This document shows, piece by piece, positions 7,234-64,000 of a stretch of DNA of 64,000 nt. The notes beneath the pieces are model-generated. The model searched no databases. It was not told where the DNA came from and saw only the letters and a list, made by a program, of their open reading frames with translations. The position numbers were made by a program, and so were the translations under genes. Source of the stretch: a virus (lineage: Duplodnaviria; Heunggongvirae; Uroviricota; Caudoviricetes); the IMG/VR virus record IMGVR_UViG_2872147552_000001. One strand, given 5' to 3'. The stretch's first letter is position 1; each line of letters starts with the position of its first letter.

Positions 7234-7291
7234 GACCTGCTTCCGTATATATATTTAATAAGTTACTTATTATTTATATACAGAAACAGGT
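7234..7291. repeat. 58-bp AT-rich imperfect palindrome, copy 1 (second copy at 40272-40329)
   Basis: gacctgcttccgtatatatatttaataagttacttattatttatatacagaaacaggtc; about 95% identical to copy 2. Confidence 0.7.
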
Positions 7292-7491
7292 CAAGAAACC
7301 AACCCAACCTAGTTTTTAGTCTCATGGTATGCAACCTTAAGATCTACTTTAAAACAGCTGCACGCCAGACGGTTGCAACATTGTTAAGTGTAACAAATTA
7401 TTGTAGATTACTCAGGCACAGAATAGCGTCTACAACTTAAGAAACGTCCAGAAATAAACAATGTTCCAATCACGTAGAAAGGGAATTAAGA

Positions 7492-8169
7492 ATGAAGGCG
7501 AATAAGTCAGCGGCACTTTTAGTTTTATTATTAGCCGGTTGCGCGCAACAAAGTAACCCACAACAAAATGCCACTGTAAAACCAATCCTAACCCAAGAAA
7601 TATTGCCTTCCTCTAACGTAGAGTCAAAGGCGAAAATGGGTGACCTTGTCGTTTATAACACGTTTGTGTCCACGTTAAAAACCGACATGGTCACTCTTGG
7701 TAACGCTTCTGGTTCGATGTCTGAGATTAAAGCGGGCAACTACTGCCACGTTGGTGGTGGGGTCTACCGGAACTTTGAAGACTCAAAAGCTGTGGGCCTG
7801 AAGGCCATTACAGGGCAGGTAGTGAGCCACACTGATAACGTCAAGTATGACAAGGTCAAAAACACTATATCTCCTCCAAACACCACGACGTTCGACGCCT
7901 CCGAAATATCCATAAAATTCGCACAAAATGTCCCCTGCCATGTAGAGAAAAAGATTGTTCAGTCTATTTCTTATAATGGTAAAAGCGGCGAAGAACTTAA
8001 ATTTATTTATTCCGAAAGCTACCCATATTTAGATGAAACTAAGACTGAGTTTTCAGTGCCTCTTTCCGATGCAAAAACCAAAGTCGAATATAAAAACCTG
8101 GCATTCAGGGTTATTGAAATGGAGGGTACTACAATCCGCTACTATGTATTACCATCTGGCAATAAATAA
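7492..8169 (+). CDS. lipoprotein (signal peptide + lipobox LAGC)
   Basis: N-terminus MKANKSAALLVLLLAGCAQQ; GGAA RBS; sits between replication and partition modules. Confidence 0.7.
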   Translation: MKANKSAALLVLLLAGCAQQSNPQQNATVKPILTQEILPSSNVESKAKMGDLVVYNTFVSTLKTDMVTLGNASGSMSEIKAGNYCHVGGGVYRNFEDSKAVGLKAITGQVVSHTDNVKYDKVKNTISPPNTTTFDASEISIKFAQNVPCHVEKKIVQSISYNGKSGEELKFIYSESYPYLDETKTEFSVPLSDAKTKVEYKNLAFRVIEMEGTTIRYYVLPSGNK

Positions 8170-8184
8170 ACTGCTTTAAAATAT

Positions 8185-8202
8185 AGGCGCCATCTGGCGC
8201 CT
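8185..8202. terminator. bidirectional hairpin terminator
   Basis: aggcgccatctggcgcct stem-loop between convergent lipoprotein and parG-like genes, T-rich flank. Confidence 0.6.
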
Positions 8203-8207
8203 TATTC

Positions 8208-9235: not shown

Positions 9236-9553
9236 TGGAGAGTTCCCTTTGCGTATATAATTATCGTCTGAAACAACTTGTTTTCTTATATGTGATATAG
9301 CCTAAATGCCTACGGCTGCGGTGTAAAGGTTAAATGGTAGGTTGTGATTAACAATTGGCAATCATAGCTTGTATTTGTCTGTTGAAAAAAGTAACAATGA
9401 CCTCTATATTACAAGTACGGTGTTATGCCGTACACAATTTGATAATGCACACGTAATGGGCTATAGCCTTTTAAAGTAATTTTTGAGTCGAAAACTCAGT
9501 TTGAACAGAGGAGATTGATGGCCTTCCTACATCACGGCCATCAGGAGGAATAC

Positions 9554-9823
9554 ATGTCAGCACTAAAAAAGCAGCGCATCGATTTGAGATTAACCGATGA
9601 CGATAAAAGCATCATCGAGGAAGCTGCCGCAATGTCTAACCAGAGCATTACTCAGTTTATGGTTAGCAGTGCATCTGAACGTGCCGTGAAAGTTATAGAG
9701 CAACACCGTAGACTAGTTCTAAGTGAAGAGTCCTGGAATCTGGTTATGGATGCTATAAGCAATCCTCCGGCACCGAACGACAAGCTGAAACGAGCTGCCA
9801 ATCGTCTGAAAAGCATGGAGTAG
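9554..9823 (+). CDS. antitoxin of GNAT toxin (DUF1778, AtaR/TacA-like)
   Basis: Start placed at MSALKKQRIDLRLTDDDK with AGGAGG RBS (track ORF starts at TTG 9515); 8 nt before toxin gene. Confidence 0.75.
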   Translation: MSALKKQRIDLRLTDDDKSIIEEAAAMSNQSITQFMVSSASERAVKVIEQHRRLVLSEESWNLVMDAISNPPAPNDKLKRAANRLKSME

Positions 9824-9830
9824 TTTACTC

Positions 9831-10352
9831 GTGAGCAATACGACGATCGAGATTTTCTCTGGAGAGAACGATTATGATCTAAACGGTTTTGATTGCGGCG
9901 AAGAGTCACTAAACGCATTTTTGACCAACCACTTAAAAAGACAGCATGAAGGAAAAATTCTTCGCGCTTATGTGCTTTGCACTAAAGAAGAAATACCAAA
10001 GGTATTAGGTTATTACACTTTGTCAGGCAGCTGCTTTGAGAAAGAAACCTTACCTTCAAAGAGTCAGCAAAAGAAAGTGCCTTATCGGAATGTCCCAAGT
10101 ATCACTTTAGGCAGACTGGCTTTGGACAAATCTCTTCAAGGTCAGGGGCTTGGCTCAATGCTTGTAACTCACGCAATGCGTGTTGTGTACAATGCATCTC
10201 TTGCGGTAGGCATTCATGGGCTTTTCGTTGAGGCGTTGAACGATAAAGCCAGGGCGTTTTATAAAAGTTTGGGCTTTATCCAGCTGGTTGGTAACAACGA
10301 TCGTTCTTTGTTCTATCCAACAAAATCTATCGAAAAATTGTTCGAAGAATAA
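9831..10352 (+). CDS. GNAT-family acetyltransferase toxin (AtaT/ItaT/TacT-like)
   Basis: YDLNGFDCGEESLNAFL..., GNAT motif A LQGQGLGSML and motif B AFYKSLGF; 173 aa. Confidence 0.85.
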   Translation: MSNTTIEIFSGENDYDLNGFDCGEESLNAFLTNHLKRQHEGKILRAYVLCTKEEIPKVLGYYTLSGSCFEKETLPSKSQQKKVPYRNVPSITLGRLALDKSLQGQGLGSMLVTHAMRVVYNASLAVGIHGLFVEALNDKARAFYKSLGFIQLVGNNDRSLFYPTKSIEKLFEE

Positions 10353-10384
10353 TGTGTCCCCCTCATTTGAGGGGAACTTCGACA

Positions 10385-10600
10385 TCACCAACCGCAAACT
10401 CTCTCTCCCATCGTATTGTGAAAAAGGATTTGGCGTTCGGTTTCTTCGGTCATTACATCGTCATTGCTGATATAAATAGGTTCAGCGCCATCGCAGAACA
10501 ACACGCTAGTGGTTTGTGGCTTAATGACGCATCCACTTATCATGCAGCTCACGATGAATGGCAGAAGCATCTTTCTGACGTATTTCACTGTTCGTCTCAT
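10385..10600 (-). CDS. o-spanin (Rz1-like lipoprotein) overlapping i-spanin
   Basis: Lipobox MLLPFIVSCMISGC; out-of-frame overlap with the Rz-like gene end. Confidence 0.55.
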   Translation of the reverse strand: MRRTVKYVRKMLLPFIVSCMISGCVIKPQTTSVLFCDGAEPIYISNDDVMTEETERQILFHNTMGERVCGW

Positions 10601-11815: not shown

Positions 11816-11877
11816 GAAAAGTCAAATCGGGATGGCGGTTTTATATCATAAAACGCCCACACTTGGTAGGTAAGTAC

Positions 11878-12717
11878 TTACACATGAGCGCCGTAAATTG
11901 CTCCAACTTTAGTCCAAGTTGGAGCATTACCAGTAACAGCTTTACCAGCTGCTCCGCCGTTATATTCTGTACCGTTACCTTGAGTATTACATCTTCCTCC
12001 AGCAGCACCGACATTACCACCCGAACCGCCTGTATATGCACTAAGAGACCCCTCACCAACAGATCCCTTACCAGGAGTGGAAATAGTACCAGCAGTTGCA
12101 CCGGAACTCATATGAGAGGAAGACCCACCAGCACCGAATGGGCACCCACCGCCACCACCAAATACTAGTCGACCCCTGTTACCGCCGCCACCGCCGCCAC
12201 CACCTCCAGCGATTGCACCATTATTCGTAATACGCAAGCGTGTACCGATGCCATTATTAATTGCGTTACCACCAGCAGCACCGGCAGCGTTACTACCACC
12301 ATTGCCACCGCGTCCATAGACAGTCACACCTGCGTTGATTACAAGGCTGATATAAGAGTTGGTAAGTGAACTCGGGAAATCTAAACATGGCACGCCGCTA
12401 CTGGACGACACCAGATCCCCTGTAATGGTAACAACGACTGGCGTCGCCCCCTGGGATTTTAAATAGTTGATCAGTGTGTCTTTGTTGTAGTTATGATTCG
12501 CACCGATGCTGTACTGAACTTCTTTAGATCGCCCGGCCATTTGAGACATTGAACCAGCCGCTGGCAGTTGCACCGCCGTTCGAGCCGCACTCATCCATCT
12601 CTGGCCTGTCACACTGACAGCCGAAGACCCAATCCAACCGGGAACACCGACAATTGGCACATCTAATCTCCTTTTTGATGTGAATATCCTGAATTGGTGA
12701 GGGTGGCCCCTCACCAT
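11878..12717 (-). CDS. glycine-rich tail fibre-associated protein
   Basis: Poly-Gly tracts (GGGGGGGGGNRG); directly downstream of the long tail fibre gene. Confidence 0.5.
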   Translation of the reverse strand: MVRGHPHQFRIFTSKRRLDVPIVGVPGWIGSSAVSVTGQRWMSAARTAVQLPAAGSMSQMAGRSKEVQYSIGANHNYNKDTLINYLKSQGATPVVVTITGDLVSSSSGVPCLDFPSSLTNSYISLVINAGVTVYGRGGNGGSNAAGAAGGNAINNGIGTRLRITNNGAIAGGGGGGGGGNRGRLVFGGGGGCPFGAGGSSSHMSSGATAGTISTPGKGSVGEGSLSAYTGGSGGNVGAAGGRCNTQGNGTEYNGGAAGKAVTGNAPTWTKVGAIYGAHV

Positions 12718-12726
12718 TCACCTTGA

Positions 12727-15700
12727 TTACATTTTTGCCTTCAGTTCGCGCACTTCCTCGCGCAACTCTTTGACAGCCTCAACCAACATGCCGATAACGC
12801 CGTTGTAGTTAAGACGCAGACGAGGCTCTCCTGACTGATCGTTATGGTCGACCGTTACCAGTTCAGGTTGAACATTCTGGACATCCTGAGCGATGAGGCC
12901 ACCAGACTGCTCATAACGGCCACAGACCTGAATCTCGTAGAGAACACCTTCGATCTGCTCCAGCTTGTCGAGCGCCCGGTCAATCTTGCGAATATTGCGC
13001 TTACTACGGCGGTCAGAACGGATATAAACGTCATTAAAGCTGCCATTACCGCCGCAAACCCAAGTACCGTCATTCTGGAGGTATGCGTTCGCATCCGTGC
13101 CGTTCGCGGTTCGTGACTTGTTAATCATGTAGAACCCGAACTGAGAGTTGCCTAAACCACCAACAAAATAATGACGATCGGCGTGCTCCTGACGAATAAT
13201 GGCCGATGCAGAGGAAGTGGCAACCGCAGAACTGTTAGACAGAGCGGCATTGTTTCTCATGTCGATCCAAGATGTACTCGACGTCGGGATTCGGATATTT
13301 CCGCTCGTGACATTTAAGCCACCGGCAAGCGACAACCCGTTCCCCATCGTAACCGCGCCTGAAGCGTTGTTAATGTACATTGGACGCAAAGCATTCCAGC
13401 TTCCGAACTTGTCGCCAGAAGCAGTCAGCATGAAGTAAGTTGTTCCGCCATCATTGCGAATAAAGAAGCCGTAATTCCCGTAAGCCACTCTAAGGCCATT
13501 CGCGCTAAGGGAAGTGATTTCACCTCTTGCTCGAACACCATAGCCAGTACTGATAGACAGTTCTTCTTGCGCATCTGTATTGCCGGTTGCCCAACGAAGG
13601 AGGCCGCCCTGAACCGTCTCATGCCAGATGGTGTCTGTGTTGCCGCCGCGGAATTTTCGAAGGTACGATTTACCACCAACTGTGCCGGCGTTAAGAGCAA
13701 CTTGATGGTAAGTACCCTGTGGAACTGAACTTTGATCTAATGAAGCGACAAGACCTAAGTTCCCATTGTTTGCGAACGTGAACTGCTTGCCCTTCGCATT
13801 AATACGCACATTACCATCAGCAGCCAACTCGATTCCGTTGGAACCGGTATAGTTCCAGAGCATCGCACTGTCTGATCCGTTGTTCGCCTTACCCACATAC
13901 CATGATGTAGCGCCGTCAGTCCTGTACCCCATAATGTACTGTCTGGTGTCAGAGCCTTGTCCCCGCAATTGAATATTTGGCGCGGTCATCGAGACGGCAA
14001 GAGAACCAGAAAGTGTTCCACCACCGCTCGGCAACGCACCGACATCAGCCGCAGTGGGTTTATGAGCAGTTGTGTAGATCTGCGCCCAGCCAGACCAGTT
14101 CGCTGTCGAAGTATCACGGCGTGAACGAACATAAACCGGTGCATGAGCACCATCCGTTCCGCTCCAGCCAATAAGCAACTCGCCCTCACCAGCAGCACTC
14201 GCACCTTTCATGTGCAATACGTTGCCATACGTGGTCGGGTAGCTATTGTTGTACGCCTCATACATTTGAATGCCAGCAGTGCCTTGAGTAGAGCCGCTTA
14301 ACGCCGTAACTCGGCCACGAGATACCAATGTATTAATATTGATATCGCCTGAACCATCAAACTTAACACCATTGATGTTTCTCGCTGTTTGCAACTTCGT
14401 AGCTGTTGAAGCATTACCGTTCAAACTACCATTGATGCCGCCAGTAACATTGAGTCCATTACCGATCGTAACAGCACCATTGGCATTGTTAATGATAAGC
14501 GGCCTTAAACTATTATAGGTTCCCAGGCTGTTACCCGAATCGGTCAACATGAAGTATGTGCTTGAACCATCGTTTCGGATAAAGAATCCGTAGTTTCCGT
14601 AGGCAATGCGCAGACCATTCGCCGATTTTGAAATAATCTCGCCAGCAGCAGTTAATCCGCCAGTTAACGCTCCTCCAGAAAGCGATAATGCTCCTACATC
14701 AGAAGCTGTTGGTTTGTTTCTAGTATTATAAGAACGACGCCAGCCTGGCGAGTAATCACTGCCATTGTACACATAAATAAATTCCGCATTATTAACGCCA
14801 CCATGACCCGATGTTGTTGTCGTTGTAACACGAATAGTGTAATTGCTTGTTGTCTTATTACTAAACACCTCAATCACGGAACCAGATAGATCGATCCTAC
14901 CGCAACCAGTGTCGTCTATATAATTATTGTTGGCGTAATACCATGAGCACCGTGCAATCCAATATTTGTTTGAAAATGCACCCTGATTATTTAGCCACGT
15001 TATAAACTGAGCAGTCGTAAATGCTGTTCCGTTACCACTATTTAACCATCCGTCGGCAGCGGTTGGTGCGTTTATATCAGCCGGCTGAGGTCTAAATCCA
15101 GTCGTGTAAACCTGCTCCCAACCACTTTCAAAACCATAGCCATCGCGAGATGAACGATAAAACAACCCGCCATTTTTATAGTGAGCCTTAATTTGAAGCG
15201 TACGGCAACTACCTACACCAGTATAAAAGTTGGCAAGAATATAACTGTCGCCCGTTCTAGTTACATTATAAGCACCAGATTCAGCATTCCACGGCACGCC
15301 GCCATCAGCATCAGCATATGACCCTGTTGCTCTTCTTGCGAAAGCGGCAACATGCGCGGCGGTTAAAGTGATATCAGTAGAGCCATCAAATGGAACACCG
15401 GATATTTTTCTTGCAGTCTGAAGTTTCGTAGCTGTATCAGAGTTCCCCTTAACCCCTTTTGGAGAATTAAGTGGTGTATTGATCGTCACTTCACCTGTTG
15501 CGTTATTTACTGCAAATGGTCGAAGACCGTTCCAGCCACCGTACTGGTCGCCTTTATCAGTCATGAGCAAGTAAGTATTTGCTCCATCATTTCGCCATAT
15601 GACACCGTAATCGCCAGCAATCATCCTTAACGCATTCTGACTACGGACAATAACTTCATCATTAGCGTAAACCTTATTACCACTAATATCCGCATTTGTG

Positions 15701-17784
15701 AGGAGTGCGTGCGAACTATAGAATCCTCTACCGTTGGAGAAATCAAGTATAGTATCAGCGTCCACGCATTCTGTTCTAGGGTCTGTAGCGCCCCATTTGT
15801 AAGTTGATTGCCCGATAACATAATCGGCAGATGGTACAACAACAGATAAGCCTTCTTCTACATATACAGCAATAGGAAACGCTTCACCTTCAACATAGAA
15901 CACAGAACACAGATCATCCGCTTTTCTACCCATCATGATAGAATGAATAGCACGCTCATTTGCGTGATAGATATGAAACATTCCATAAGCATAATGTCCC
16001 CTGTCAGTCCAACCGCCAGGCATGACAAAACCATTGAACTCACAGTTGTTCATCCTATCATTGGCAGTCTTTGAACTTGTACTTATCGTCACCCTGGATG
16101 CTAATTCACTGCTGAATCCAGAAGAACGACGAATAACCACAGGGTAAAACTTACCAGCTTCAACTCCTGCGGGCGCATTCACTGTTGAATACTTCATTCC
16201 TCGTTTAGCGGCCATATCAGTCTTGCTGGCAGCATTAATGTTGCTCAGGAAGCGGGCCTTGTCTGGTATATCCGCACCGTTCTGGTTCTTCGCCAATCGG
16301 CTATTCGCATTGTCATTGGCTGCTTTAACTGCTTTTGGCGTTGCGGCCAGCGTTTCAGATGTGCTGTTGGTTGCACTACTGAGCTGGACTATCCCCTTTT
16401 TCGTCGTGCTCGCATCCTCAAGCGCCACGGCGGATGCAATATCCTCTGCCCGTTTTGCCGCTGTCTCAGCGCGCGTTGCTGCGGATTCTGCCGTACTTTT
16501 GCTCTGTGCTGCCGCCGTCGCACTGCCAGCAGCCTCTGTTGCCTTCGTGGATGCCGTCGTGGCGCTGCCCTTCGCTGCTGACGCCTGTCTGGTCGCCTCA
16601 TCTTTTGAAGCAGACGCAGATGATGCCGATGACGCCGCCGAACTGGCGGACGATGCGGCAGCCGTTTTTGAGGATTCTGCGCTGGTTTCCGACGCTTTCG
16701 CGTTCGTTTCGGATGTCTTCGCTGCGGAAGCAGACCTCGCTGCTGCGCTGGCCTGTTCAGTGGCTTCGCCAGCCTTCGTTGTGGCTGTTGAAGCAGACGA
16801 TGCGGCACTTTCTGCCGATTTTCCGGCGGCGGTGGCACTGGCTGAGGCCTGCCCGGCACTTGTTGACGCGGCACTGGCAGACGACGCAGCCGCTGTTTTT
16901 GAGCCTGCCGCAGCTGAGGCGCTCTGTCCCGCTGCCGTCTCAGAAGACTTAGCGTTCGTCTCGGACGTTTTTGCCGCCTTCGCGGAATTTGCTGCCGCCG
17001 TTGCCGAGGAAGCTGCGCTACTGGCGCTCAAGGATGCGTTCGTTTCTGATGATTTCGCTGCCTCTTTTGAGGCCGCCGCATCCCGGGCTGAGGTGGCAGC
17101 TTCTGACGCTTTCGTGGTCGCGGTGGATGCAGAAGTGGCTGCTGATTGTTGTGACGCTGCGGCATTCGTTTCAGATTTTTTCGCAGCAGTTGCACTCGCA
17201 CTTGCGGCACTTTGTGAGGATGCCGCAGCGGATGCACTTTGAGACGCTTGAGAGGCTTTTTCTCCAGCGGTATTGGCGCTTTCTGCTGCTGCGGCAGCAC
17301 TGGCCGCCGCCTCACGAGCTTTGTCGCCAGCAGCATCAATCGCGTCAGTGTTATTTTTATACCACTCAACGTTTTCGTTGTGCTCGTTGACGATCTGCAT
17401 TAGCGGCTTAACGGTCACTTCTGTACCGTCTTCACGCTCGATTGTCACCTCATCCAGCGCAGTCAACCAACTGCGCATGGACTTGGAATCAGCCGACATA
17501 CGCGACATTAGCGCAGTAAAGCGCGCGCTAAACTGTGTTAAGTCGCCTTCATAGGTCGTAATGATTCGGCACGGAACTTCAGACTGAGTTTCGCCGGTAT
17601 AAGGTTCTGAGAGAACAATATTCGTATCGCTTATTACGCGCTTGATCTCATACAGCTTATTGTCGGGGCCAATGACGATCATCCCCGGCAACACACCATT
17701 AGCTGTTACGTTCCAGGCTGTCCCTGCCCCAACCAGAGTATTGCTACCCTGTGTAAATGTGATAGTACCTTCCCTGTACCACAT
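12727..17784 (-). CDS. side/L-shaped tail fibre with C-terminal intramolecular chaperone domain
   Basis: 1685 aa; Ala/Ser-rich low-complexity region; conserved fibre motif GIVQLSSATNSTSETLAATPKAVK; three tandem ~110-aa repeats; C-terminal S74-type motif SDRRSKRNI...GGLIAQDVQ. Confidence 0.85.
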   Translation of the reverse strand: MWYREGTITFTQGSNTLVGAGTAWNVTANGVLPGMIVIGPDNKLYEIKRVISDTNIVLSEPYTGETQSEVPCRIITTYEGDLTQFSARFTALMSRMSADSKSMRSWLTALDEVTIEREDGTEVTVKPLMQIVNEHNENVEWYKNNTDAIDAAGDKAREAAASAAAAAESANTAGEKASQASQSASAAASSQSAASASATAAKKSETNAAASQQSAATSASTATTKASEAATSARDAAASKEAAKSSETNASLSASSAASSATAAANSAKAAKTSETNAKSSETAAGQSASAAAGSKTAAASSASAASTSAGQASASATAAGKSAESAASSASTATTKAGEATEQASAAARSASAAKTSETNAKASETSAESSKTAAASSASSAASSASSASASKDEATRQASAAKGSATTASTKATEAAGSATAAAQSKSTAESAATRAETAAKRAEDIASAVALEDASTTKKGIVQLSSATNSTSETLAATPKAVKAANDNANSRLAKNQNGADIPDKARFLSNINAASKTDMAAKRGMKYSTVNAPAGVEAGKFYPVVIRRSSGFSSELASRVTISTSSKTANDRMNNCEFNGFVMPGGWTDRGHYAYGMFHIYHANERAIHSIMMGRKADDLCSVFYVEGEAFPIAVYVEEGLSVVVPSADYVIGQSTYKWGATDPRTECVDADTILDFSNGRGFYSSHALLTNADISGNKVYANDEVIVRSQNALRMIAGDYGVIWRNDGANTYLLMTDKGDQYGGWNGLRPFAVNNATGEVTINTPLNSPKGVKGNSDTATKLQTARKISGVPFDGSTDITLTAAHVAAFARRATGSYADADGGVPWNAESGAYNVTRTGDSYILANFYTGVGSCRTLQIKAHYKNGGLFYRSSRDGYGFESGWEQVYTTGFRPQPADINAPTAADGWLNSGNGTAFTTAQFITWLNNQGAFSNKYWIARCSWYYANNNYIDDTGCGRIDLSGSVIEVFSNKTTSNYTIRVTTTTTSGHGGVNNAEFIYVYNGSDYSPGWRRSYNTRNKPTASDVGALSLSGGALTGGLTAAGEIISKSANGLRIAYGNYGFFIRNDGSSTYFMLTDSGNSLGTYNSLRPLIINNANGAVTIGNGLNVTGGINGSLNGNASTATKLQTARNINGVKFDGSGDININTLVSRGRVTALSGSTQGTAGIQMYEAYNNSYPTTYGNVLHMKGASAAGEGELLIGWSGTDGAHAPVYVRSRRDTSTANWSGWAQIYTTAHKPTAADVGALPSGGGTLSGSLAVSMTAPNIQLRGQGSDTRQYIMGYRTDGATSWYVGKANNGSDSAMLWNYTGSNGIELAADGNVRINAKGKQFTFANNGNLGLVASLDQSSVPQGTYHQVALNAGTVGGKSYLRKFRGGNTDTIWHETVQGGLLRWATGNTDAQEELSISTGYGVRARGEITSLSANGLRVAYGNYGFFIRNDGGTTYFMLTASGDKFGSWNALRPMYINNASGAVTMGNGLSLAGGLNVTSGNIRIPTSSTSWIDMRNNAALSNSSAVATSSASAIIRQEHADRHYFVGGLGNSQFGFYMINKSRTANGTDANAYLQNDGTWVCGGNGSFNDVYIRSDRRSKRNIRKIDRALDKLEQIEGVLYEIQVCGRYEQSGGLIAQDVQNVQPELVTVDHNDQSGEPRLRLNYNGVIGMLVEAVKELREEVRELKAKM

Positions 17785-49744: not shown

Positions 49745-49751
49745 TTAATCT

Positions 49752-50039
49752 TTAGTGGAGCAGACCGATGTCGATGGTATCCCCTGAATCATCCACACGG
49801 ATCATCAGCATGGCGAAGGCGTTTAGTGGATAACTGGCGTGCCATTCAGGGAAGCGGTCATCTCGCATGAAGTCGGCAATGTCGTAAACGCATCCCTCAA
49901 AGTGGAAGAATCGCGTGCTTACCTGCTCGTCATATTCCACATGATCCATTTCTTGCTGTTCTGTTTCCGGCAAGTCCAGCCATGATTCAAGGAATACATT
50001 TTGTGCTTTAGGGGTAATGGTGAAATCAGTCATGAGCAT
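49752..50039 (-). CDS. small acidic protein
   Basis: Start at MLMTDFTITPK with GAGGA RBS (track ORF to 50165 would cover the upstream operator); strongly acidic. Confidence 0.55.
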   Translation of the reverse strand: MLMTDFTITPKAQNVFLESWLDLPETEQQEMDHVEYDEQVSTRFFHFEGCVYDIADFMRDDRFPEWHASYPLNAFAMLMIRVDDSGDTIDIGLLH

Positions 50040-50368
50040 ATCCTCACTGCGTAAACATGTTGTTTTCTTGTTGGTGTAATTATCGCAGTGTAGATAAGGC
50101 ATAAAAGAAGTTAATACAGGCTGAATACACAAGAAAGGTTCTGGAAGTTGATAGCCAGGTTTCAAACTAACCTTCGGTTATTAAAAGTCATTTAAGACCA
50201 CCAATGCTGGTGGCCTTAATAATTATCGACCGATTACGCTAAGGATCTTTTCCTCAACTGATTTGTTGTTGCGACTAAACTGCCTTGCGTATCTGATGAC
50301 AGAAGAGGCGTTTTGCTTTCTGACCATCTCGGCTCTTTCCTTCAGGCGTTTCTTGAAATCGCCCATAT

Positions 50369-54972: not shown

Positions 54973-57006
54973 TTACTTAACCTGGTGGCCAGGTTTAGCA
55001 CCAGCATCCGGGCTTAACAGGAAGATATCTTTCCCGCCGGGGCCAGCAGCCATCACCATGCCTTCAGAGATACCGAAGCGCATTTTACGTGGTGCCAGGT
55101 TAGCCACCATAATGGTGTGACGACCAATCAGTGCCTGTGGATCTGGATAAGCGGAACGGATGCCTGAGAAGACATTACGCTTTTCACCACCGAGATCCAG
55201 CGTCAGGCGAAGCAGTTTGTCAGAACCTTCTACAAACTCTGCGTTTTCAATCAGCGCCACGCGCAGGTCAACTTTGGCGAAGTCGTCAAAGGTGATAGTT
55301 TCCTGAATCGGGTCGTCAGCCAGTGGGCCAGTTACCGGTGCGGCTGTGGCTTTCACTTCTTCTTTGGATGCTTCCACCAGTGCTTCAACCTGCTTCATAT
55401 CGATGCGGTTATACAGTGCCTTGAACGGATTTACTTTATGGCCCAGCAGCGGTTGCTGGATACCATCCCAGGTCAGTTCTGTATTCAGGAATGCTTCTGC
55501 ACGTTCAGTCAGTTTCGGCAGTACCGGCTTCAGGTACGTCATCAGCACGCGGAACAGGTTAATGCCCATAGAGCAAATCGCCTGCAGATCGGCATCGCGA
55601 CCTTCCTGCTTCGCCACCACCCACGGAGCCTGTTCATCGACATAGCGGTTAGCCAGGTCAGCCAATGCCATGATTTCACGGATAGCTTTACCAAATTCGC
55701 GGCTTTCCCATGCTTCGCCAATCACTTCAGCGGCATCAGTAAAGGTTTTGTACAGTTGCGGGTCAGCCAGTTCGCTTGCCAGCACGCCGTCAAAACGCTT
55801 GTTTATAAAGCCTGCATTACGGGAGGCCAGGTTAACCACTTTGTTCACGATATCGGCATTCACGCGCTGAACGAAATCCTCCAGGTTGAGATCGATATCA
55901 TCAATGCGCGAAGAGAGTTTCGCAGTGTAGTAGTAACGCAGGCTGTCGGCGTCAAAATGATTCAGCCAGGTGCTGGCTTTAATAAAGGTGCCGCGAGACT
56001 TGGACATCTTCGCGCCGTTCACCGTCACATAGCCGTGAACAAACAGGTTGGTCGGCTTGCGGAAGTTGCTGCCTTCCAGCATGGCAGGCCAGAACAGGCT
56101 GTGGAAGTAAACAATATCTTTACCGATGAAGTGGTACAGCTCGGCGGTGGAGTCTTTCTTCCAGTATTCATCGAAGCTGGTGGTATCGCCGCGCTTGTCG
56201 CACAGATTCTTGAAGGAACCCATGTAGCCAATCGGCGCGTCCAGCCAGACGTAGAAATATTTGCCCGGCGCGTCCGGAATTTCAAAACCGAAGTAAGGCG
56301 CATCGCGGGAGATATCCCACTGTTGCAGGCCGGATTCAAACCATTCCTGCATTTTGTTCGCCACCTGCTCCTGCAACGCGCCGCTGCGGGTCCATGCCTG
56401 CAACATTTCGCTGAAAGAAGGCAGATCAAAGAAGAAGTGTTCGGAATCACGCATTACCGGGGTAGCGCCAGAAACCACCGATTTCGGCTCGATCAATTCA
56501 GTCGGGCTATATGTTGCGCCGCAGACTTCACAGTTATCGCCGTATTGATCTGGCGCTTTACATTTCGGGCAGGTGCCTTTTACAAAACGATCCGGCAGGA
56601 ACATGCCTTTTTCCGGGTCGTACAACTGAGAGATAGTGCGGTTTTTAATAAAACCGTTCTCTTTCAGGCGAGTATAGATAAGCTCAGACAACTGACGGTT
56701 CTCTTCGCTGTGCGTCGAGTGATAGTTGTCATAGCTGATGTTAAAGCCTGCGAAATCAGTCTGGTGTTCCTGACTCATTTCGCCAATCATCTGCTCCGGT
56801 GTGATACCAAGCTGCTGCGCTTTCAGCATGATCGGCGTACCGTGGGCATCGTCGGCACAGATGAAATTAACCTCGTGGCCGCGCATTCGCTGGTAACGAA
56901 CCCAGACATCAGCCTGGATGTGCTCCAGCATATGGCCGAGGTGGATTGAGCCGTTAGCGTACGGCAGCGCGCACGTCACCAGAATTTTCTTCGCGACTTG
57001 GGTCAT
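54973..57006 (-). CDS. metG: methionine--tRNA ligase
   Basis: 677-aa product starting [37 protein letters not shown] and KMSKS motifs, Zn knuckle CPKC...CEVC; recalled from memory as near-identical to E. coli MetG; track ORF has a 43-codon spurious N-terminal extension. Confidence 0.97.
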
Positions 57007-57163
57007 AGTAGGCATTACTTCTTTGTAGTGAAAAGGGGCTTGATAGTAACAAAATGGCCTTATGTCTGCCATGTGATAACAGCATTTCTCATAAATGATT
57101 AAATGTCGTAGCTGGAGTACACTACAAGGCGACAATTGCGCAAATTAAAATAAAGGAGACGGG

Positions 57164-58264
57164 ATGAGCGAGTCCAAATCGCCGGATGCCCTGAGAGCAA
57201 TGGTAGCCGGTACGCTGGCTAATTTTCAGCACCCAACCCTGAAACACAACCTGACTACGCTTAAAGCGTTACACCATGTTGCGTTGATGGATGACACACT
57301 GCATGTCGAACTAATCATGCCTTTCGTGTGGAATAAGCCTTTTGAAGACCTGAAAGAGCAATGTAGTGGTGATCTGCTCCGTATCACTGGCGCAAAGGCT
57401 ATTGACTGGAAGCTGTCGTACAACATTGCCACGCTTAAGCGCGTCAAAAACCAACCAGGCATTAATGGCGTTAAGAACATTATCGCCGTCAGCTCAGGCA
57501 AGGGCGGCGTGGGTAAATCCTCCACGGCGGTAAACCTGGCACTGGCGTTGGCTGCTGAAGGTGCGAAAGTTGGTATTTTGGATGCCGATATCTATGGTCC
57601 ATCAATTCCAACCATGCTGGGTGCGGAAAACCAACGTCCAACCTCACCTGACGGTACTCACATGGCACCTATCATGTCTCATGGCCTGGCAACCAACTCT
57701 ATTGGTTATCTGGTCACCGACGACAATGCAATGGTGTGGCGTGGACCGATGGCCAGCAAGGCGCTGATGCAGATGTTGCAGGAAACTCTATGGCCTGATC
57801 TGGACTATCTCGTTCTCGATATGCCGCCGGGCACTGGTGATATTCAGTTGACGCTGGCGCAGAACATTCCTGTAACTGGTGCGGTTGTGGTAACTACGCC
57901 GCAAGACATCGCGCTGATCGATGCGAAGAAAGGCATTGTGATGTTCGAAAAAGTCGAAGTGCCGGTACTGGGTATCGTCGAAAACATGAGTGTGCATATT
58001 TGCAGTAACTGCGGTCATCACGAGCCAATTTTTGGCACCGGTGGCGCACAGAAACTGGCCGAGAAATACAACACGCAGTTGTTAGGCCAAATGCCACTTC
58101 ATATCTCTCTTCGTGAAGATCTGGATAACGGAACACCAACCGTTATTAGTCGTCCAGATAGCGAATTTACGGCTATTTATCGTGACCTCGCAGATCGCGT
58201 TGCCGCCCAAATGTATTGGCAAGGTGAAGTAATACCTGGCGAAATCGCATTCCGCGCAGTGTGA
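57164..58264 (+). CDS. apbC: Fe-S cluster carrier ATPase Mrp/ApbC
   Basis: P-loop SGKGGVGKSST, CxxC motif ICSNCGHH; 366 aa; divergent from metG as in the E. coli chromosome. Confidence 0.95.
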   Translation: MSESKSPDALRAMVAGTLANFQHPTLKHNLTTLKALHHVALMDDTLHVELIMPFVWNKPFEDLKEQCSGDLLRITGAKAIDWKLSYNIATLKRVKNQPGINGVKNIIAVSSGKGGVGKSSTAVNLALALAAEGAKVGILDADIYGPSIPTMLGAENQRPTSPDGTHMAPIMSHGLATNSIGYLVTDDNAMVWRGPMASKALMQMLQETLWPDLDYLVLDMPPGTGDIQLTLAQNIPVTGAVVVTTPQDIALIDAKKGIVMFEKVEVPVLGIVENMSVHICSNCGHHEPIFGTGGAQKLAEKYNTQLLGQMPLHISLREDLDNGTPTVISRPDSEFTAIYRDLADRVAAQMYWQGEVIPGEIAFRAV

Positions 58265-58270
58265 TAAAAA

Positions 58271-58289
58271 GGCGGTGCATTGCACCGCC
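58271..58289. terminator. bidirectional terminator between apbC and UmuD'-like gene
   Basis: ggcggtgcattgcaccgcc hairpin flanked by A-run / T-run. Confidence 0.65.
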
Positions 58290-58301
58290 TAATCAGTTCT
58301 C

Positions 58302-58691
58302 CTACATCACGGGACAATCATCAAACTCGCCACTTCTTGCGTCGTTGATAATGTGAGTGATCACACCAAACACGGCATTGCTGCCCGTGCATCCATCGTC
58401 ATCCTTTGGCAATGCTTCCTTCTTACCGGTTCTTAAATCCTCCAGATGCTGACGTGGGTACTTCCGGTATCTTTTTACGCGATATTCCCCATCCAGAGCG
58501 CATACAAGCAGAGAACCATCAACCGGGGTAAGCGAGGAATCGACCACCAGCAATGCACCCTGTAATATTCCCTCACGATGATGACTATCAGCTGCCCTCA
58601 TGAAGTAGGTCGCTGAAGGATGTCTAATTATCTGCTGATCAAGAGAAATACGGCTCTCAGCATAATCCGCCGCAGGAGAAGGGAAGCCCAT
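58302..58691 (-). CDS. UmuD'-like S24 peptidase (lacks N-terminal arm)
   Basis: Begins MGFPSPAADYAE (equivalent to the UmuD cleavage-site region), retains Ser (DSH) and Lys (RVKRYRK) of the catalytic dyad; 129 aa. Confidence 0.75.
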   Translation of the reverse strand: MGFPSPAADYAESRISLDQQIIRHPSATYFMRAADSHHREGILQGALLVVDSSLTPVDGSLLVCALDGEYRVKRYRKYPRQHLEDLRTGKKEALPKDDDGCTGSNAVFGVITHIINDARSGEFDDCPVM

Positions 58692-58863
58692 AGCGTTTTG
58701 CCCTCAATACTGTTCATTTATACAGTATACATGAAAGAAGCTCACTCAGTGCAACTGATCGGTACATAGCACCAGACAAAGGAACGTTATTTTCTCGAAC
58801 AAGAAAAGGTAGAAAACAAATTGTTTAAGGCCACAACTAGTGGCCTTAATGGAGAAGGGATGC

Positions 58864-59388
58864 TTATTGGCTATGGCTAAAAATCAAATGAGACACTTCA
58901 TTTGGTTGTAGCTCGTCAAGATCCGGGGCCACAAAACCTTTTCCAAAAGACTTCACAAGTGATTCACCAGCCGCATCATTGTCACCTATTACGCGAAAGT
59001 CATACGGCAGCATTGCCAGTTGACGACGTAATCCTGCTGAGAAAGTCGAACCTAACAGCGCCCACGAATTTCCGCCCGCGTTGTGCACTGCTGCACTTTT
59101 AAAAATCGACTCAGTTATCCATATCGGTCCATCTTTTAAAGGAAGATAGGTTCCCCATAGTAGCTGTCTGCCGTTCGCTCGTGTGAAATACCGGGCCATC
59201 TTCGGATTGCTATGCTGCTTAGGAGCGCCTGGTCTGTATGTCTGATACCCGGCCAACATCCCATCAAACCTGTATAGAGGGAACGTAACAACTCCTTCGC
59301 TTTCATCGATCCACTGTCTATATGGATGCACATCATGGCGGTAGTTACGAGTTAGCAAATGAGCTTCCAGCTTTCCATATTTGGTCAT
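58864..59388 (-). CDS. small TOPRIM-like domain protein
   Basis: DFRVIGDNDAAGE (DxD-type TOPRIM motif); start at internal Met after upstream stop (track to 59427). Confidence 0.45.
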   Translation of the reverse strand: MTKYGKLEAHLLTRNYRHDVHPYRQWIDESEGVVTFPLYRFDGMLAGYQTYRPGAPKQHSNPKMARYFTRANGRQLLWGTYLPLKDGPIWITESIFKSAAVHNAGGNSWALLGSTFSAGLRRQLAMLPYDFRVIGDNDAAGESLVKSFGKGFVAPDLDELQPNEVSHLIFSHSQ

Positions 59389-59401
59389 AACTTCGCATCC
59401 C

Positions 59402-60217
59402 TCATAACACTTCCCATTTATCACCATATTTCTCCATAGCTCTTAGCCAGTAAACATGGCCACTAGGCATAGTGATGTGAGGCTCGCCAAACTCTTCTCC
59501 ATGCACATCAAAGATGTCCCCAACAGAGAATTGGGGGATTTCTACGCCGTTTTCACCTATATGCGTAATTCGTATACGTTTCGGTTGAGATTCTCCCCCT
59601 TTGAGCGAGTTGTTCACTGCTCTGGCAATCTTCTCCCGCAATTGCTGCGTTCCGTGGTACTGAACCGCAATATCCCTCAACTCATTCACCAGTTCTCGAA
59701 TCTGGTGATCTTTAAGCTCATTATTTGAGTGATGGGTAACAACTCTGGTTAATTCACCCTTGTCTTTTGCTCTTACGTATGCAGCTCTTGTGCATTCGAC
59801 CCATGTATTACCGCCTACATTAACTTCGTAGATTAGGCTGGACTTATCTGTCAATTCGGAACAAATACGGGCCGTGGTCTGGCAACTAGAGCATTCGCAG
59901 TTATCGCGGAAACCGTGATCTACCGGTCGAGAAAGAGGTTTAACTTTTTCATCCAACTTCATCACAGCATCGTGATAAGCGTTCCAGCCGTCATCTTTAC
60001 CAAGTTGATAAATCTCTGAAGGCTCCATGTAGTCTATATCGCAACCTTCTTCATCCGATCTATCTGGTCGCTTCCCTGGTAATCGCTCATAAAAACGATT
60101 TCTGTCTCGACGTTCGGCTCTCAGTGCTAACGCAAGAAGTTGCTCAAGCGAGGTATTTGCACCAGCAATAATTTCATTGAGAATATCTTCTGTGAGATCT
60201 TTCGCTACCGTGCTCAT
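59402..60217 (-). CDS. hypothetical protein
   Basis: 271-aa ORF in coupled minus-strand operon; Cys cluster CECSSC. Confidence 0.5.
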   Translation of the reverse strand: MSTVAKDLTEDILNEIIAGANTSLEQLLALALRAERRDRNRFYERLPGKRPDRSDEEGCDIDYMEPSEIYQLGKDDGWNAYHDAVMKLDEKVKPLSRPVDHGFRDNCECSSCQTTARICSELTDKSSLIYEVNVGGNTWVECTRAAYVRAKDKGELTRVVTHHSNNELKDHQIRELVNELRDIAVQYHGTQQLREKIARAVNNSLKGGESQPKRIRITHIGENGVEIPQFSVGDIFDVHGEEFGEPHITMPSGHVYWLRAMEKYGDKWEVL

Positions 60218-60597
60218 TTATCTCTCTCAGTATGTTGCGATGGCGTAAATTTGACGACATCAAATATTTTGGATGGCATCAACTTTATCCGCGAGCTTAG
60301 TTCGGCTCTTCTCTGTAATGCGGTTAATAATGTTTTCGTTCTGACGCCTTCGTGTATCCTCATCCCTGGCACAAGAACTACATCGCAGGGGAGATGCTCA
60401 GGTGACAAATCATTTTGGGCATCGCTAATCAGTCGTGTAATCTCTCTTTCAAGCCGACCGCCTAGCTCTGTTTTAGTGCAATGTTCTGACCAATCACCAG
60501 CCTCAAGCAGCGCGAGAATGCTTAAAATATCGTCCAATAGATCAGTGGTATTATCGACTTCCTTCTGAAGCTCACCGGCTACTGATTTATGCATCAT
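60214..60597 (-). CDS. hypothetical protein
   Basis: 127-aa ORF, ATGA-type overlap with neighbours. Confidence 0.45.
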   Translation of the reverse strand: MMHKSVAGELQKEVDNTTDLLDDILSILALLEAGDWSEHCTKTELGGRLEREITRLISDAQNDLSPEHLPCDVVLVPGMRIHEGVRTKTLLTALQRRAELSSRIKLMPSKIFDVVKFTPSQHTERDK

Positions 60598-61247
60598 TCG
60601 TCATCCTCATCCGAGTCATCCTCATCACAGGATGAGAGTAGTGGGTTAGTCATTCGCCCTACTTGAGTGGCGTAGCCACGCCGACAGAGATTGCGCAGCA
60701 CACTGTATATTTCGAACATCTCGGTTCGTTCATCGCCAACATCAAGCTCAGATGCTATAGCGTGGCATTCAGTCGCGAGAGCCGATATTTTCTGAAATAA
60801 CTCTGCATTATTCACTGTTCGACTCCTGCGGCGTTCTGGTAGTGACATCCAGTGTGTGACATTGCTAATCAGACCATATTCATTAGTTTGAGGATGGTTG
60901 CCGTTAGCGTCTCCGTATTTAAGACTCTCCATAAAGCCATAATGCCTATCACCATTAACGCTCACAAAGCCGTAATAAGCAGGTATAACGCCGATCTCAC
61001 ACGTAACCAGTAAAGGAAAACTAGTTCTCCAATTTAGCTCGCCAATTACAGGCATTCGCTCACTACAGCTTATCCAACCATCCTTAGATGCGGCTGTATT
61101 GGCATAGGCCTTACGGTGCTTCTGTAACTCTGCTGCAATCGCTCTCACGACTTCAACTGGTGCCCTTGCAGCAAACTCAATGTTGGTGATCAGCTCATTA
61201 AGATATTTCTCGCTTGGGTAGCATTTCTTATTGTTAACGGTGGTCAT
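60594..61247 (-). CDS. hypothetical protein with poly-acidic C-terminus
   Basis: 217 aa ending SSCDEDDSDEDDE. Confidence 0.5.
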   Translation of the reverse strand: MTTVNNKKCYPSEKYLNELITNIEFAARAPVEVVRAIAAELQKHRKAYANTAASKDGWISCSERMPVIGELNWRTSFPLLVTCEIGVIPAYYGFVSVNGDRHYGFMESLKYGDANGNHPQTNEYGLISNVTHWMSLPERRRSRTVNNAELFQKISALATECHAIASELDVGDERTEMFEIYSVLRNLCRRGYATQVGRMTNPLLSSCDEDDSDEDDE

Positions 61248-61432
61248 TAGGCAGCTCTCTCAACAACAAGCAATTCGTCGTAGTCATAATCAGTTTCGGA
61301 ACCATCCGTACCGAACAGAGTCACTTTGTCATTTTCCATCCAAAAAGATTTAACCGCACATTGTTGACCTTTAGATGTTATGAGCACATCACCAGGGATT
61401 ACGTCTTCAGCGCGAACCTCTAGTGTTCTCAT
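61247..61432 (-). CDS. hypothetical small protein
   Basis: 61-aa ORF coupled in operon. Confidence 0.35.
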   Translation of the reverse strand: MRTLEVRAEDVIPGDVLITSKGQQCAVKSFWMENDKVTLFGTDGSETDYDYDELLVVERAA

Positions 61433-61851
61433 CGTGCTGCCCCCTCTTTGGTGAAAATGCCTGCTGCAATGCTGTTTATGATGCTGTCAGTGCATGGAGT
61501 AGAAAGCTGGGCATCTCCAGCAATTTTCATGACCTCAACATCCGCATATCGAATACCGAGGTGTATCAGACCGGCTATACCTGACTTAAGTCGAACATTT
61601 TCCATAAACAGATCCTTTTCCCGCTGTTTAACGGTCTCCAGCTCAACACGCAACTTCTCAATTTCGGCAGCCATGTAGTAACCAACCATAGCGAAAGTGG
61701 CGAAAGGGTAGTCCGAATCATCAGGAGATACGGAGGCCATTAGCAGACCATCGTGCATGTTCTGGCTTCCATCAGTGATAGATACCGCATAAGAATCGCT
61801 GGTTTCCCGCTTATACAATACGACGACCGGGTTCTTGATTTTCTCTCTCAT
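61429..61851 (-). CDS. hypothetical protein
   Basis: 140-aa ORF coupled in operon. Confidence 0.45.
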   Translation of the reverse strand: MREKIKNPVVVLYKRETSDSYAVSITDGSQNMHDGLLMASVSPDDSDYPFATFAMVGYYMAAEIEKLRVELETVKQREKDLFMENVRLKSGIAGLIHLGIRYADVEVMKIAGDAQLSTPCTDSIINSIAAGIFTKEGAAR

Positions 61852-62405
61852 TACGATGCCTCTAACTTGTCTAACTCTTTCAGCCCTTCACGTACCGCGT
61901 TCACAATGCGTTCCAGATACTGGTATTTCGGGTTTGGTACCGTTGGCCAGTCGGCATACCACGGATCATCACCAAAGAGATTCAGTAGTTTGTTACCGAC
62001 GCCGAAACAGCAGCAGCTTTCTTTTACGTCATCGGCGTTTTCCGCCTCGTCCCACATTTCGCGAGCCAGTACGGCGTCTATTTCTCTCTCTCTTCGTAAC
62101 TTTATGATTTCTGACTTCACGAAAAGCAGATTTGCATCGTTGTCATCGTCGACCGTGCTTCGCAGTTGAGGGTCGAAATAGCCGATTAGATACTCGTTGC
62201 TGACCCGCTTAATGAACGTCTGCACATCATCACCGCCCATAGCAAACCAAGCCGCAGTCCACGCTTTTCCGTAGCAGGTGATGGTGATTCTTCCCTTACC
62301 AGGTTCGTAGTTTTCAATCATCACTCGAACCGGATCGAGGCGTTCCAGATCCGTCAGCACAAAGGAAAGAACATCTATTTTTTCGATCTTCATGCAGCCT
62401 CCCAC
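61851..62405 (-). CDS. hypothetical protein
   Basis: 184-aa ORF coupled in operon. Confidence 0.45.
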   Translation of the reverse strand: MGGCMKIEKIDVLSFVLTDLERLDPVRVMIENYEPGKGRITITCYGKAWTAAWFAMGGDDVQTFIKRVSNEYLIGYFDPQLRSTVDDDNDANLLFVKSEIIKLRREREIDAVLAREMWDEAENADDVKESCCCFGVGNKLLNLFGDDPWYADWPTVPNPKYQYLERIVNAVREGLKELDKLEAS

Positions 62406-63031
62406 GCGCTCCAGATCAGCGATTTGTGTTTTTCATAACGTTTGATGTGTACCGGTTTCAGAAGCGCAATACCTTCAGTGACTTTCGCCATTGCGCTTAA
62501 TAACAACGGGTGTTCTATACCTATCCTCTCCATGTACTCGACAACATCAGCGTTGGCACCAATCTCCTTCCCGTTAAAAAGTACGTCCAGCATCAGCTCT
62601 TTCTCTGCAAGGTAGATAGCTGAAAACTCAGGATCGCGACTCACGATAGAAGAGGTATTGTCGAGCAGGTCAGCCAGCTTGATCATGCGCGTCTGCATGT
62701 CGAGATTTTGCTCCAGCTCCCGGACATTGATGATGAAACGCTGTATTCGATTGCCGTCTTCTGGCCTTGCAATGTTGGTCAGAGCCTGAACCATTTCAGC
62801 TACGCGCTCACCGAAGTGATCACGAACCATCTCTATGGTTACATGGGTGTCTTCGACCACATCATGCAGAAGCGCCGCGATTTGCATCTCCACGGTTCCG
62901 TCATGCAATGCAACAATCTCTCGGACAGCAACCGGGTGGTTGATGTAGTCTTCGCCGGTATATTTTCTTTTCTGACCAACGCCACCATGAGCGCCAGCGG
63001 CGAACATATGAGCTTCGGAAATACTAGACAT
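62390..63031 (-). CDS. HD-domain phosphohydrolase
   Basis: H...HD signature (IAALLHDVVEDT) and downstream His/Asp; 213 aa. Confidence 0.65.
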   Translation of the reverse strand: MSSISEAHMFAAGAHGGVGQKRKYTGEDYINHPVAVREIVALHDGTVEMQIAALLHDVVEDTHVTIEMVRDHFGERVAEMVQALTNIARPEDGNRIQRFIINVRELEQNLDMQTRMIKLADLLDNTSSIVSRDPEFSAIYLAEKELMLDVLFNGKEIGANADVVEYMERIGIEHPLLLSAMAKVTEGIALLKPVHIKRYEKHKSLIWSAWEAA

Positions 63032-63150
63032 TCTTAACTCCGTTGTTTTCTAGTTGTGGTTATTTTCACAAATAAGAAAAGGTAGAAAACAATTTATTTA
63101 AGGCCACAACTTATGGCCTTTATTTATTCATGCCGAAGGATTTGTAGCGT

Positions 63151-63531
63151 CTAATTGCCGGATAAAATGGGGTGAGGTGCTTGCCAGTAGGCTCCACCGG
63201 TCCATGTGAACCCCATGCGAATAAGAGTGTTTATTGCGGCTTTGGTAGACTCCGATTCGACACTGGCTTTTCGAAACTCTTGAACCTCTTTCGCCAACTT
63301 GTATGTAATTGTGCAGGGGACGATTGCAGCCCAGCCTTTCTCATGACTGTTAATGACCATCTGGATGTGACCATCCAGAATAGGTTGATTAGGCATGTTA
63401 TTGAAAATGTCTGCCTGTTTTTGAATGTGAAGAAAAAGCCTTGCCAGCTCCATTTGCTCACTACGAGACAAGGGATTATCAAGAGGGCTTTTTGCAAAAG
63501 CGGCTATACGCTGTGCGTCAATGCCAAACAT
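63151..63531 (-). CDS. hypothetical protein
   Basis: 126-aa ORF; operator + hairpin at 63060-63120 downstream. Confidence 0.45.
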   Translation of the reverse strand: MFGIDAQRIAAFAKSPLDNPLSRSEQMELARLFLHIQKQADIFNNMPNQPILDGHIQMVINSHEKGWAAIVPCTITYKLAKEVQEFRKASVESESTKAAINTLIRMGFTWTGGAYWQAPHPILSGN

Positions 63532-63998
63532 CAGCGCACCTCACCATCTTTATGGCTGGAGTTAACTTCCGCCATTAAATGTCTGACGTAATCGACAAGA
63601 GAGCCGCCTGGTGGAATCTGGCATTCCTCAACTAACTGGAAGTAGATATCCGCTGCATTACGTGTATTGCTACCCGCGCATATTCTTTCTTCCCGAAGTG
63701 CATGAAGCTCGTTGATCAAACGGTCACACTCTCCGTTACGCTGATCCACAACGGCCTCAAGCTCTGCGACGCGTTCACCTGGCGTCTTACCTTCTTTGCG
63801 TTGGATGGTAACGACGAAATCGCCAATTGCAGGGACGTTGTAATCCAGCTCAAGGTAGTTTTTGGCACCGCTGCGGACGAACTCACCCGCGAACATGGTG
63901 GCGAACATCGCAGAGGCCACTTCGCCGTTGAAAAGTGACTCCAGATCTAACGGAGTCCCGGCATCAAGAGCCTCTTTTGCTGTATCCATTGCATCCAT
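63531..63998 (-). CDS. hypothetical protein (start close to window edge)
   Basis: 155-aa ORF, ATGA-type overlap with downstream gene. Confidence 0.45.
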   Translation of the reverse strand: MDAMDTAKEALDAGTPLDLESLFNGEVASAMFATMFAGEFVRSGAKNYLELDYNVPAIGDFVVTIQRKEGKTPGERVAELEAVVDQRNGECDRLINELHALREERICAGSNTRNAADIYFQLVEECQIPPGGSLVDYVRHLMAEVNSSHKDGEVR

Positions 63999-64000
63999 GA

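Follow-up and report, generated by a model that had tools for sequence, protein, structure and literature searches.

Genes and features of the humD locus

Within the window, by which we mean the whole 64-kb stretch of DNA that was analysed, a gene for a stand-alone UmuD'-like protein lies between a convergent copy of apbC and an upstream gene for a Toprim protein (Table 1). The first-pass annotation had described a 129-aa product encoded convergently with apbC, and the open reading frame (ORF) listing agrees with this; the stop codons of the two genes are 37 nt apart. The gap between them holds a 9-bp GC-rich hairpin, called terminator-like by the scan, with a T-run on the minus strand and, on the plus strand, an A-run preceding the hairpin. 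From these sequence features, the hairpin probably terminates both convergent genes. Since another terminator-like hairpin follows the Toprim gene, humD is probably on its own transcript; the gene is thus flanked by such hairpins and does not form an operon with a umuC-type gene. Of a phage DNA-primase profile, the upstream Toprim protein matches the central part alone (positions 143-333 of 435), so the gene may be a fragment of a primase gene or may encode an independent protein consisting of Toprim only. A tRNA scan found no tRNA genes in the window.

Table 1. Coordinates of the genes and predicted signals around humD, given as positions in the window
Feature	Position	Strand	Remarks
metG, methionyl-tRNA synthetase	54973..57006	minus	677 aa; the 720-aa TTG start in the ORF list is too long
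apbC/mrp	57164..58264	plus	ORF listing
Terminator-like GC-rich hairpin AGGCGGTGCAaTGCACCGCCT	58270..58290	.	apbC/humD gap; hairpin scan
humD coding sequence	58302..58691	minus	129 aa, ATG start, stop codon included; ORF listing
Probable ribosome-binding site GAGGG	58701..58705	minus	9 nt before the humD ATG; inferred from the sequence
Predicted LexA (SOS) box TACTGTATAAATGAACAGTA	58708..58727	.	Gene-strand reading; starts 34 nt upstream of the humD ATG
Terminator-like hairpin 3' of the upstream Toprim gene	58825..58849	minus	Hairpin scan
Stand-alone Toprim protein	58864-59427	minus	~175-187 aa; just upstream of humD

The N-terminus of the product is MGFPSPAADYAESRISLDQ, opening with MGFPSPAADY (M-G-F-P-S-P). 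Cys24/Gly25 of E. coli UmuD is the site of RecA*-stimulated self-cleavage, and Gly25 is the first residue of UmuD'. When the product is aligned by MAFFT with full-length E. coli UmuD (from NC_000913.3), Met1 replaces Cys24 and Gly2 falls on Gly25; in HMMER alignments to the solved structures 1UMU, 1I4V and 8GMT, the first residue of UmuD' likewise corresponds to residue 2. A longer ORF with a miscalled start is ruled out, as the frame is closed by a stop five codons ahead of the ATG, and therefore no N-terminal arm is concealed by a wrong start. The earlier proposal that the product begins at the position of the UmuD self-cleavage site is thus borne out.

Identity of the protein as HumD

The NCBIfam model NF051876.1, "HumD family translesion DNA polymerase", which is an equivalog model with a curated cut-off of 120 bits, matches the product at 219.8 bits (E = 8e-66), with residues 1-129 aligned to positions 1-129 of 129. 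Further matches, likewise well outside what chance would give, are to PHROG 811 "UmuD-like protein" (E = 2.7e-54), UmuD' in the PDB (1UMU, E = 6.7e-23 over residues 2-118) and Pfam Peptidase_S24 (E = 1.6e-9). The protein is 100% identical to RefSeq WP_000506720.1, named "HumD family translesion DNA polymerase" by PGAP, and to CYRAN_98 of the phage-plasmid Cyrano/pLF82, in which the same metG-apbC-humD arrangement is found and from which there is no difference of substance. It shares 119 of 129 residues with HumD of P7 and 118 of 129 with that of P1, and is 91.5-93% identical to HumD of P1, P7, RCS47, SJ46 and D6.

The comparison with HumD of P1 and P7 (AAQ14181.1 and AAQ07575.1; NF051876) extends beyond overall identity (91.5-92%). 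The proteins have the same length of 129 aa, the same start at the UmuD' Gly and the same C-terminal tail, here NDARSGEFDDCPVM, which is specific to HumD; the genes share an identical 20-nt LexA box, stand without an adjacent umuC and are carried by temperate phage-plasmids of E. coli. The carriers differ, being a P1-type myovirus in the one case and an SSU5-type siphovirus phage-plasmid in the other. So do the neighbours, which are apbC downstream and the Toprim gene upstream here, and phd-doc downstream and lxr upstream in P1. The genes also show large synonymous divergence. Nucleotide divergence between this humD and that of P1 and P7 is 14%, with dS of about 0.77, dN of about 0.04 and hence dN/dS of about 0.05 (Nei-Gojobori); such a ratio at such a dS indicates strong purifying selection on humD.

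With E. coli UmuD and UmuD' (1UMU, 1I4V, 8GMT), the protein shares the S24 fold region at about 42% identity over UmuD residues 25-139, the UmuD' N-terminus FPSPAADY, a probably LexA-controlled promoter (LexA box) and the Ser/Lys dyad, the catalytic Ser60 and Lys97 of UmuD having intact counterparts in Ser36 and Lys73. Unlike UmuD, it lacks the 24-residue arm and the Cys-Gly cleavage site, is not part of a umuC operon, and has a 4-residue insertion and a C-terminal extension of about 10 residues. Its score with the NCBIfam UmuD subfamily model NF007621 is 87 bits, under the cut-off of 110, so that neither the score, the architecture nor the absence of a umuDC operon would place it among UmuD proteins. 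Where the first-pass annotation had suggested a stand-alone UmuD'-like protein resembling P1 HumD, the model score (219.8 bits against 120), the 92% identity and the shared LexA box and tail carry the assignment further: judged by its sequence, the gene is a HumD orthologue, beyond being merely HumD-like. It is predicted to work like processed UmuD', although the gene itself is not umuD.

A truncated, decaying and functionless remnant, whether of a full-length umuD or of a repressor of the LexA/CI type, might also be short and might also lack an N-terminal domain, and the product does give a weak match to the LexA model TIGR00498. The match reaches 27.2 bits, far under the cut-off of 110.95, and only peptidase-domain residues 4-78 align; a Pfam/NCBIfam profile search found no DNA-binding domain in the 129-aa product. 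A truncated LexA-type pseudogene with a broken dyad, the one case raised at the outset that would have overturned the assignment, is excluded by the intact dyad, the dN/dS of 0.05, the HumD model covered end to end over its 129 positions and this sub-cut-off LexA score. The same 128-131-aa architecture and start recur in P1, P7, N15, HK140 and an Aeromonas phage, and 770 of the 5426 complete E. coli genomes compared contain the gene. Decay is, on this evidence, so improbable that it can for practical purposes be set aside in favor of a functional HumD.

HumD-like proteins in other phages

Stand-alone proteins of this kind are encoded by N15 (gp26), phiKO2 (gp23), HK140 (gp28), HK639 and other lambdoid phages. 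They are 60-71% identical to the HumD described here in N15, phiKO2, HK140 and HK639, are 128-131 aa long, start with MGFP or MGMP, end in an SGEFDD-type tail and usually have an upstream LexA box. In the family alignment of P1, P7, N15, HK140 and an Aeromonas phage, all members are 128-131 aa long and start with M-G-(F/M)-P, and the tail IND.RSGEFDDCPV is common to the HumD-like phage proteins, whereas UmuD is without it. (In the stretches compared, the homologues occupy positions 2501-2887 for N15 gp26, 2501-2890 for HK140 gp28 and 2486-2881 for gp11 of the Aeromonas phage pAEv1818.) The SGEFDD-type tail can be regarded as the family signature, which is kept together with the cleavage-site Gly start while the dyad decays.

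Thr takes the place of the catalytic Ser in N15 gp26 and HK140 gp28, and pAEv1818 gp11 lacks both dyad residues, with Gln standing in for the Ser and Arg for the Lys. This distribution bears on the question of whether HumD could be an active S24 Ser-Lys peptidase acting in trans, for example on host UmuD or a LexA-like substrate, with faster host SOS mutagenesis or prophage induction as the outcome. UmuD cleavage can be intermolecular, and Ser36 and Lys73 are intact here and in HumD of P1 and P7 despite the loss of a cleavage site of their own. However, since the dyad varies from one family member to another, catalysis is not what the family is selected for, and we know of no peptidase substrate of HumD. 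Peptidase activity in trans is accordingly a highly improbable role. The pattern fits a UmuD'-like protein that has no further need for self-cleavage.

In HK140 (positions 1910-2890 of the compared stretch), the HumD-like gene follows a small ORF and lies beside a divergent homologue of dinI, which encodes a RecA-filament binder; a LexA-type box is found about 280 nt upstream of the HumD-like gene. The arrangement resembles a compact cluster of SOS-modulating genes located at the attachment end of the prophage.

An SSU5-like phage-plasmid as the carrier

The whole window is collinear, at 93-99% identity and with the exception of a divergent tail-fibre stretch, with the circular plasmid p2_20377 (109,075 bp), from position 68807 through the origin to 24011. 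The genes of that plasmid include those for head, tail, terminase, ParB, RepA, integrase, DnaE, RecA, SSB, primase, helicase, NrdAB and ThyA, as well as dfrA51. The 7-kb right end of the window was matched at a coverage of at least 80% in 35 E. coli genomes, in records of about 106-156 kb that are mostly named plasmids, and it also matches the phages PhiR41_1, CMS-2020a and Cyrano, and SSU5 in part. By these comparisons, the 64-kb window is an SSU5-like phage-plasmid of E. coli, of the Cyrano/pLF82 type. Cyrano (pLF82) forms virions, and its induction by ciprofloxacin is 39-fold (PMC9928086).

This identification changes the reading of the genes next to humD. A reading of apbC and metG as host chromosome beside a prophage does not hold: a prophage next to chromosomal apbC is excluded by the collinearity of all 64 kb with a circular 109-kb phage-plasmid and by an identity of only 88% between the metG-apbC DNA and K-12. 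The two genes (54973-58264) form a 3298-bp block with 88.4% DNA identity to the mrp-metG block of K-12, the divergent promoter region included, and alignment thus identifies them as one captured chromosomal block that is cargo of the element. At the protein level, identity to K-12 is 98.7% for MetG and 94% for ApbC; set against the lower DNA identity, these values indicate that both are under strong selection. SSU5 itself has no metG, apbC or humD according to the sequence comparison. The apbC copy of Cyrano is listed as a moron, with expression 9-fold above background in lysogens.

The region 59400-64000 is a mosaic of small early-type genes (ead/Ea22-like, Eaa-like, DUF551, the phiTE_072 family and an HD-domain phosphohydrolase), parts of which are at least 99% identical to Stx-converting and other lambdoid phages while other parts are 86-90% identical to P1 or SSU5; it looks like a recombination hot zone between the phage-plasmid and lambdoid gene pools. 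The stretches 7290-8204, 9342-10388, 11848-16300 and 49749-50187 have no match, or one of only 81%, to p2_20377, and the largest of them falls within the tail-fibre and Cor genes and so probably reflects a replacement that affects host range. Outside the part corresponding to the window, the relative plasmid NZ_JBYMFS010000003.1 (3489-4562 and 7539-11057 of the compared stretch) encodes its own RecA and pol III alpha subunit (DnaE), together with a gp32-type SSB, primase, DnaB-like helicase, ligase and NrdAB.

Probable SOS control of humD

The predicted LexA box upstream of humD matches the consensus TACTG(TA)5CAGTA at 17 of 20 positions and is base-for-base identical to the LexA sites annotated (as protein_bind) for humD of P1 and P7. 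Exactly one TACTGT-N8-ACAGTA site with at most one mismatch occurs in the 64-kb window, against 0.10 expected by chance, and comparable boxes are found upstream of N15 gp26, pAEv1818 gp11 and E. coli umuD. A consensus scan of 58200-58900 gave no qualifying sigma-70 promoter; the best candidate by eye, TTGCAC-19 nt-TATACT, overlaps the LexA box and is weak, with an over-long spacer. Together with the flanking hairpins, the box suggests that humD probably has its own LexA-controlled transcript. DNA homology to P7 starts about 60 nt upstream of the humD ATG and ends at the stop codon, and because it is confined in this way, it can be concluded that a compact LexA-box-plus-gene cassette has moved.

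Polymerase partner and proposed function

When E. coli UmuC was used as a tblastn query, neither the 64-kb window nor the complete 109-kb relative yielded a homologue (best E = 0.72), in line with the earlier statement that there is no umuC near the gene, and no Y-family polymerase is annotated on the complete relative plasmid. Extending the search for a partner to the rest of the element therefore gave no pol V, ImuB or DinB candidate, by UmuC tblastn or by the annotation of the relative, with ImuB and DinB covered by annotation only. On the host side, umuC was detected in 5423 of the 5426 complete E. coli genomes surveyed, which means that practically every host can provide a partner.

These observations lead us to propose that humD of the SSU5-like phage-plasmid very likely supplies an SOS-induced substitute for UmuD', one that would arm the UmuC of the host with no need of RecA-mediated cleavage. 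Host LexA would probably repress humD via the predicted SOS box over the promoter region; once DNA damage inactivates LexA, humD would be translated directly as UmuD', without the 24-residue N-terminal arm, and HumD would thus be made in the active form. HumD would then dimerise and bind host UmuC, giving a pol V-type translesion polymerase (HumD2-UmuC, followed by activation by RecA-ATP). As HumD would not depend on RecA*-mediated self-cleavage, it would bypass the slow post-translational checkpoint by which host pol V activity is held back. The likely benefit, which is speculative, would be lesion bypass on the DNA of both the element and the host under the SOS conditions that also induce the lytic cycle.

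Dimerisation, binding to UmuC and RecA filaments, and support of mutagenesis are inferred here from orthology to P1 HumD at 92% identity. Expression of P1 HumD under native signals is reportedly weak, good complementation being obtained only with a high-copy plasmid, and the protein's physiological contribution may be small or modest. The GenBank record of P1 states that HumD "functionally complements E. coli UmuD'", McLenigan et al. 1999 report it to be functionally homologous to UmuD' and to promote SOS mutagenesis, and it has been called an already activated, shorter UmuD (PMC7092418). In a CRISPRi screen, P1 humD was non-essential.

A different role is conceivable in which HumD acts mainly as a modulator and does not serve within a polymerase, binding RecA filaments, the beta clamp, or the pol III alpha subunit of the host or the element, and thereby slowing replication or inhibiting recombination, like the checkpoint of UmuD and UmuD'C, or tuning the element's replisome during SOS. 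UmuD gene products bind pol III subunits and RecA filaments. The gene content of relatives can be read in this sense, as the relative plasmid has its own RecA, DnaE, gp32-type SSB, primase and helicase and no Y-family polymerase, hot, which encodes a homologue of pol III theta, is found close to humD in P1, and the HK140 homologue lies near a dinI-like RecA-filament binder. But P1 HumD, 92% identical, is documented as acting in SOS mutagenesis in the manner of UmuD', and host UmuC is nearly always present. We therefore consider a mainly modulatory role unlikely and retain the proposal of a UmuD' surrogate for host UmuC.

With HumD and a phage-encoded RecA on one type of element, it may be asked which RecA would activate a HumD-UmuC complex. 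It is quite unlikely, in our estimate, that HumD works with the element's own RecA and replicase and not only with host UmuC, either in a damage-induced replisome switch or as a trans-acting Ser36/Lys73 peptidase; if true, the role of HumD on SSU5-type elements would exceed that of the UmuD' surrogate of P1.

Distribution and significance

When humD DNA with its upstream region was compared with 5426 complete E. coli genomes, 770 of them (~14%) gave a match; 698 of the matching places lie on plasmids and 113 on chromosomes. Among these E. coli matches, 75 records are at least 99% identical, and a large class at 80-90% corresponds to P1-type plasmids. Among PLSDB plasmids, 148 have a gene whose product is 99% or more identical, and in 460 the encoded protein is 90-95% identical. 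Chromosomal copies of this humD allele, at 94.6-99.5%, also occur (e.g., NZ_CM192149.1 and NZ_AP027512.1), with the upstream LexA-box region outside the match; chromosomal humD copies may be integrated relatives or lambdoid prophages with the same cassette.

It is important to note that humD as found here is already known: the exact protein is named HumD in RefSeq, a curated NCBIfam model exists, and the family was characterised in 1999. A literature search (humD with SSU5 or phage-plasmid) returned no paper that discusses the gene on SSU5-like elements. Labels differ between records, the Cyrano gene being called "LexA-like peptidase S24" and many RefSeq entries "S24 family peptidase", while newer ones are named HumD. 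The finding is thus correct but ordinary, and its value lies mainly in correct annotation. At the level of the family, the LexA-box-plus-humD cassette has spread between unrelated lineages, namely P1-type, N15-type and SSU5-type elements and lambdoid prophages. Through HumD, such mobile elements could begin error-prone synthesis at an earlier point of the SOS response, a possibility of relevance to stress-induced mutagenesis during exposure to quinolones.
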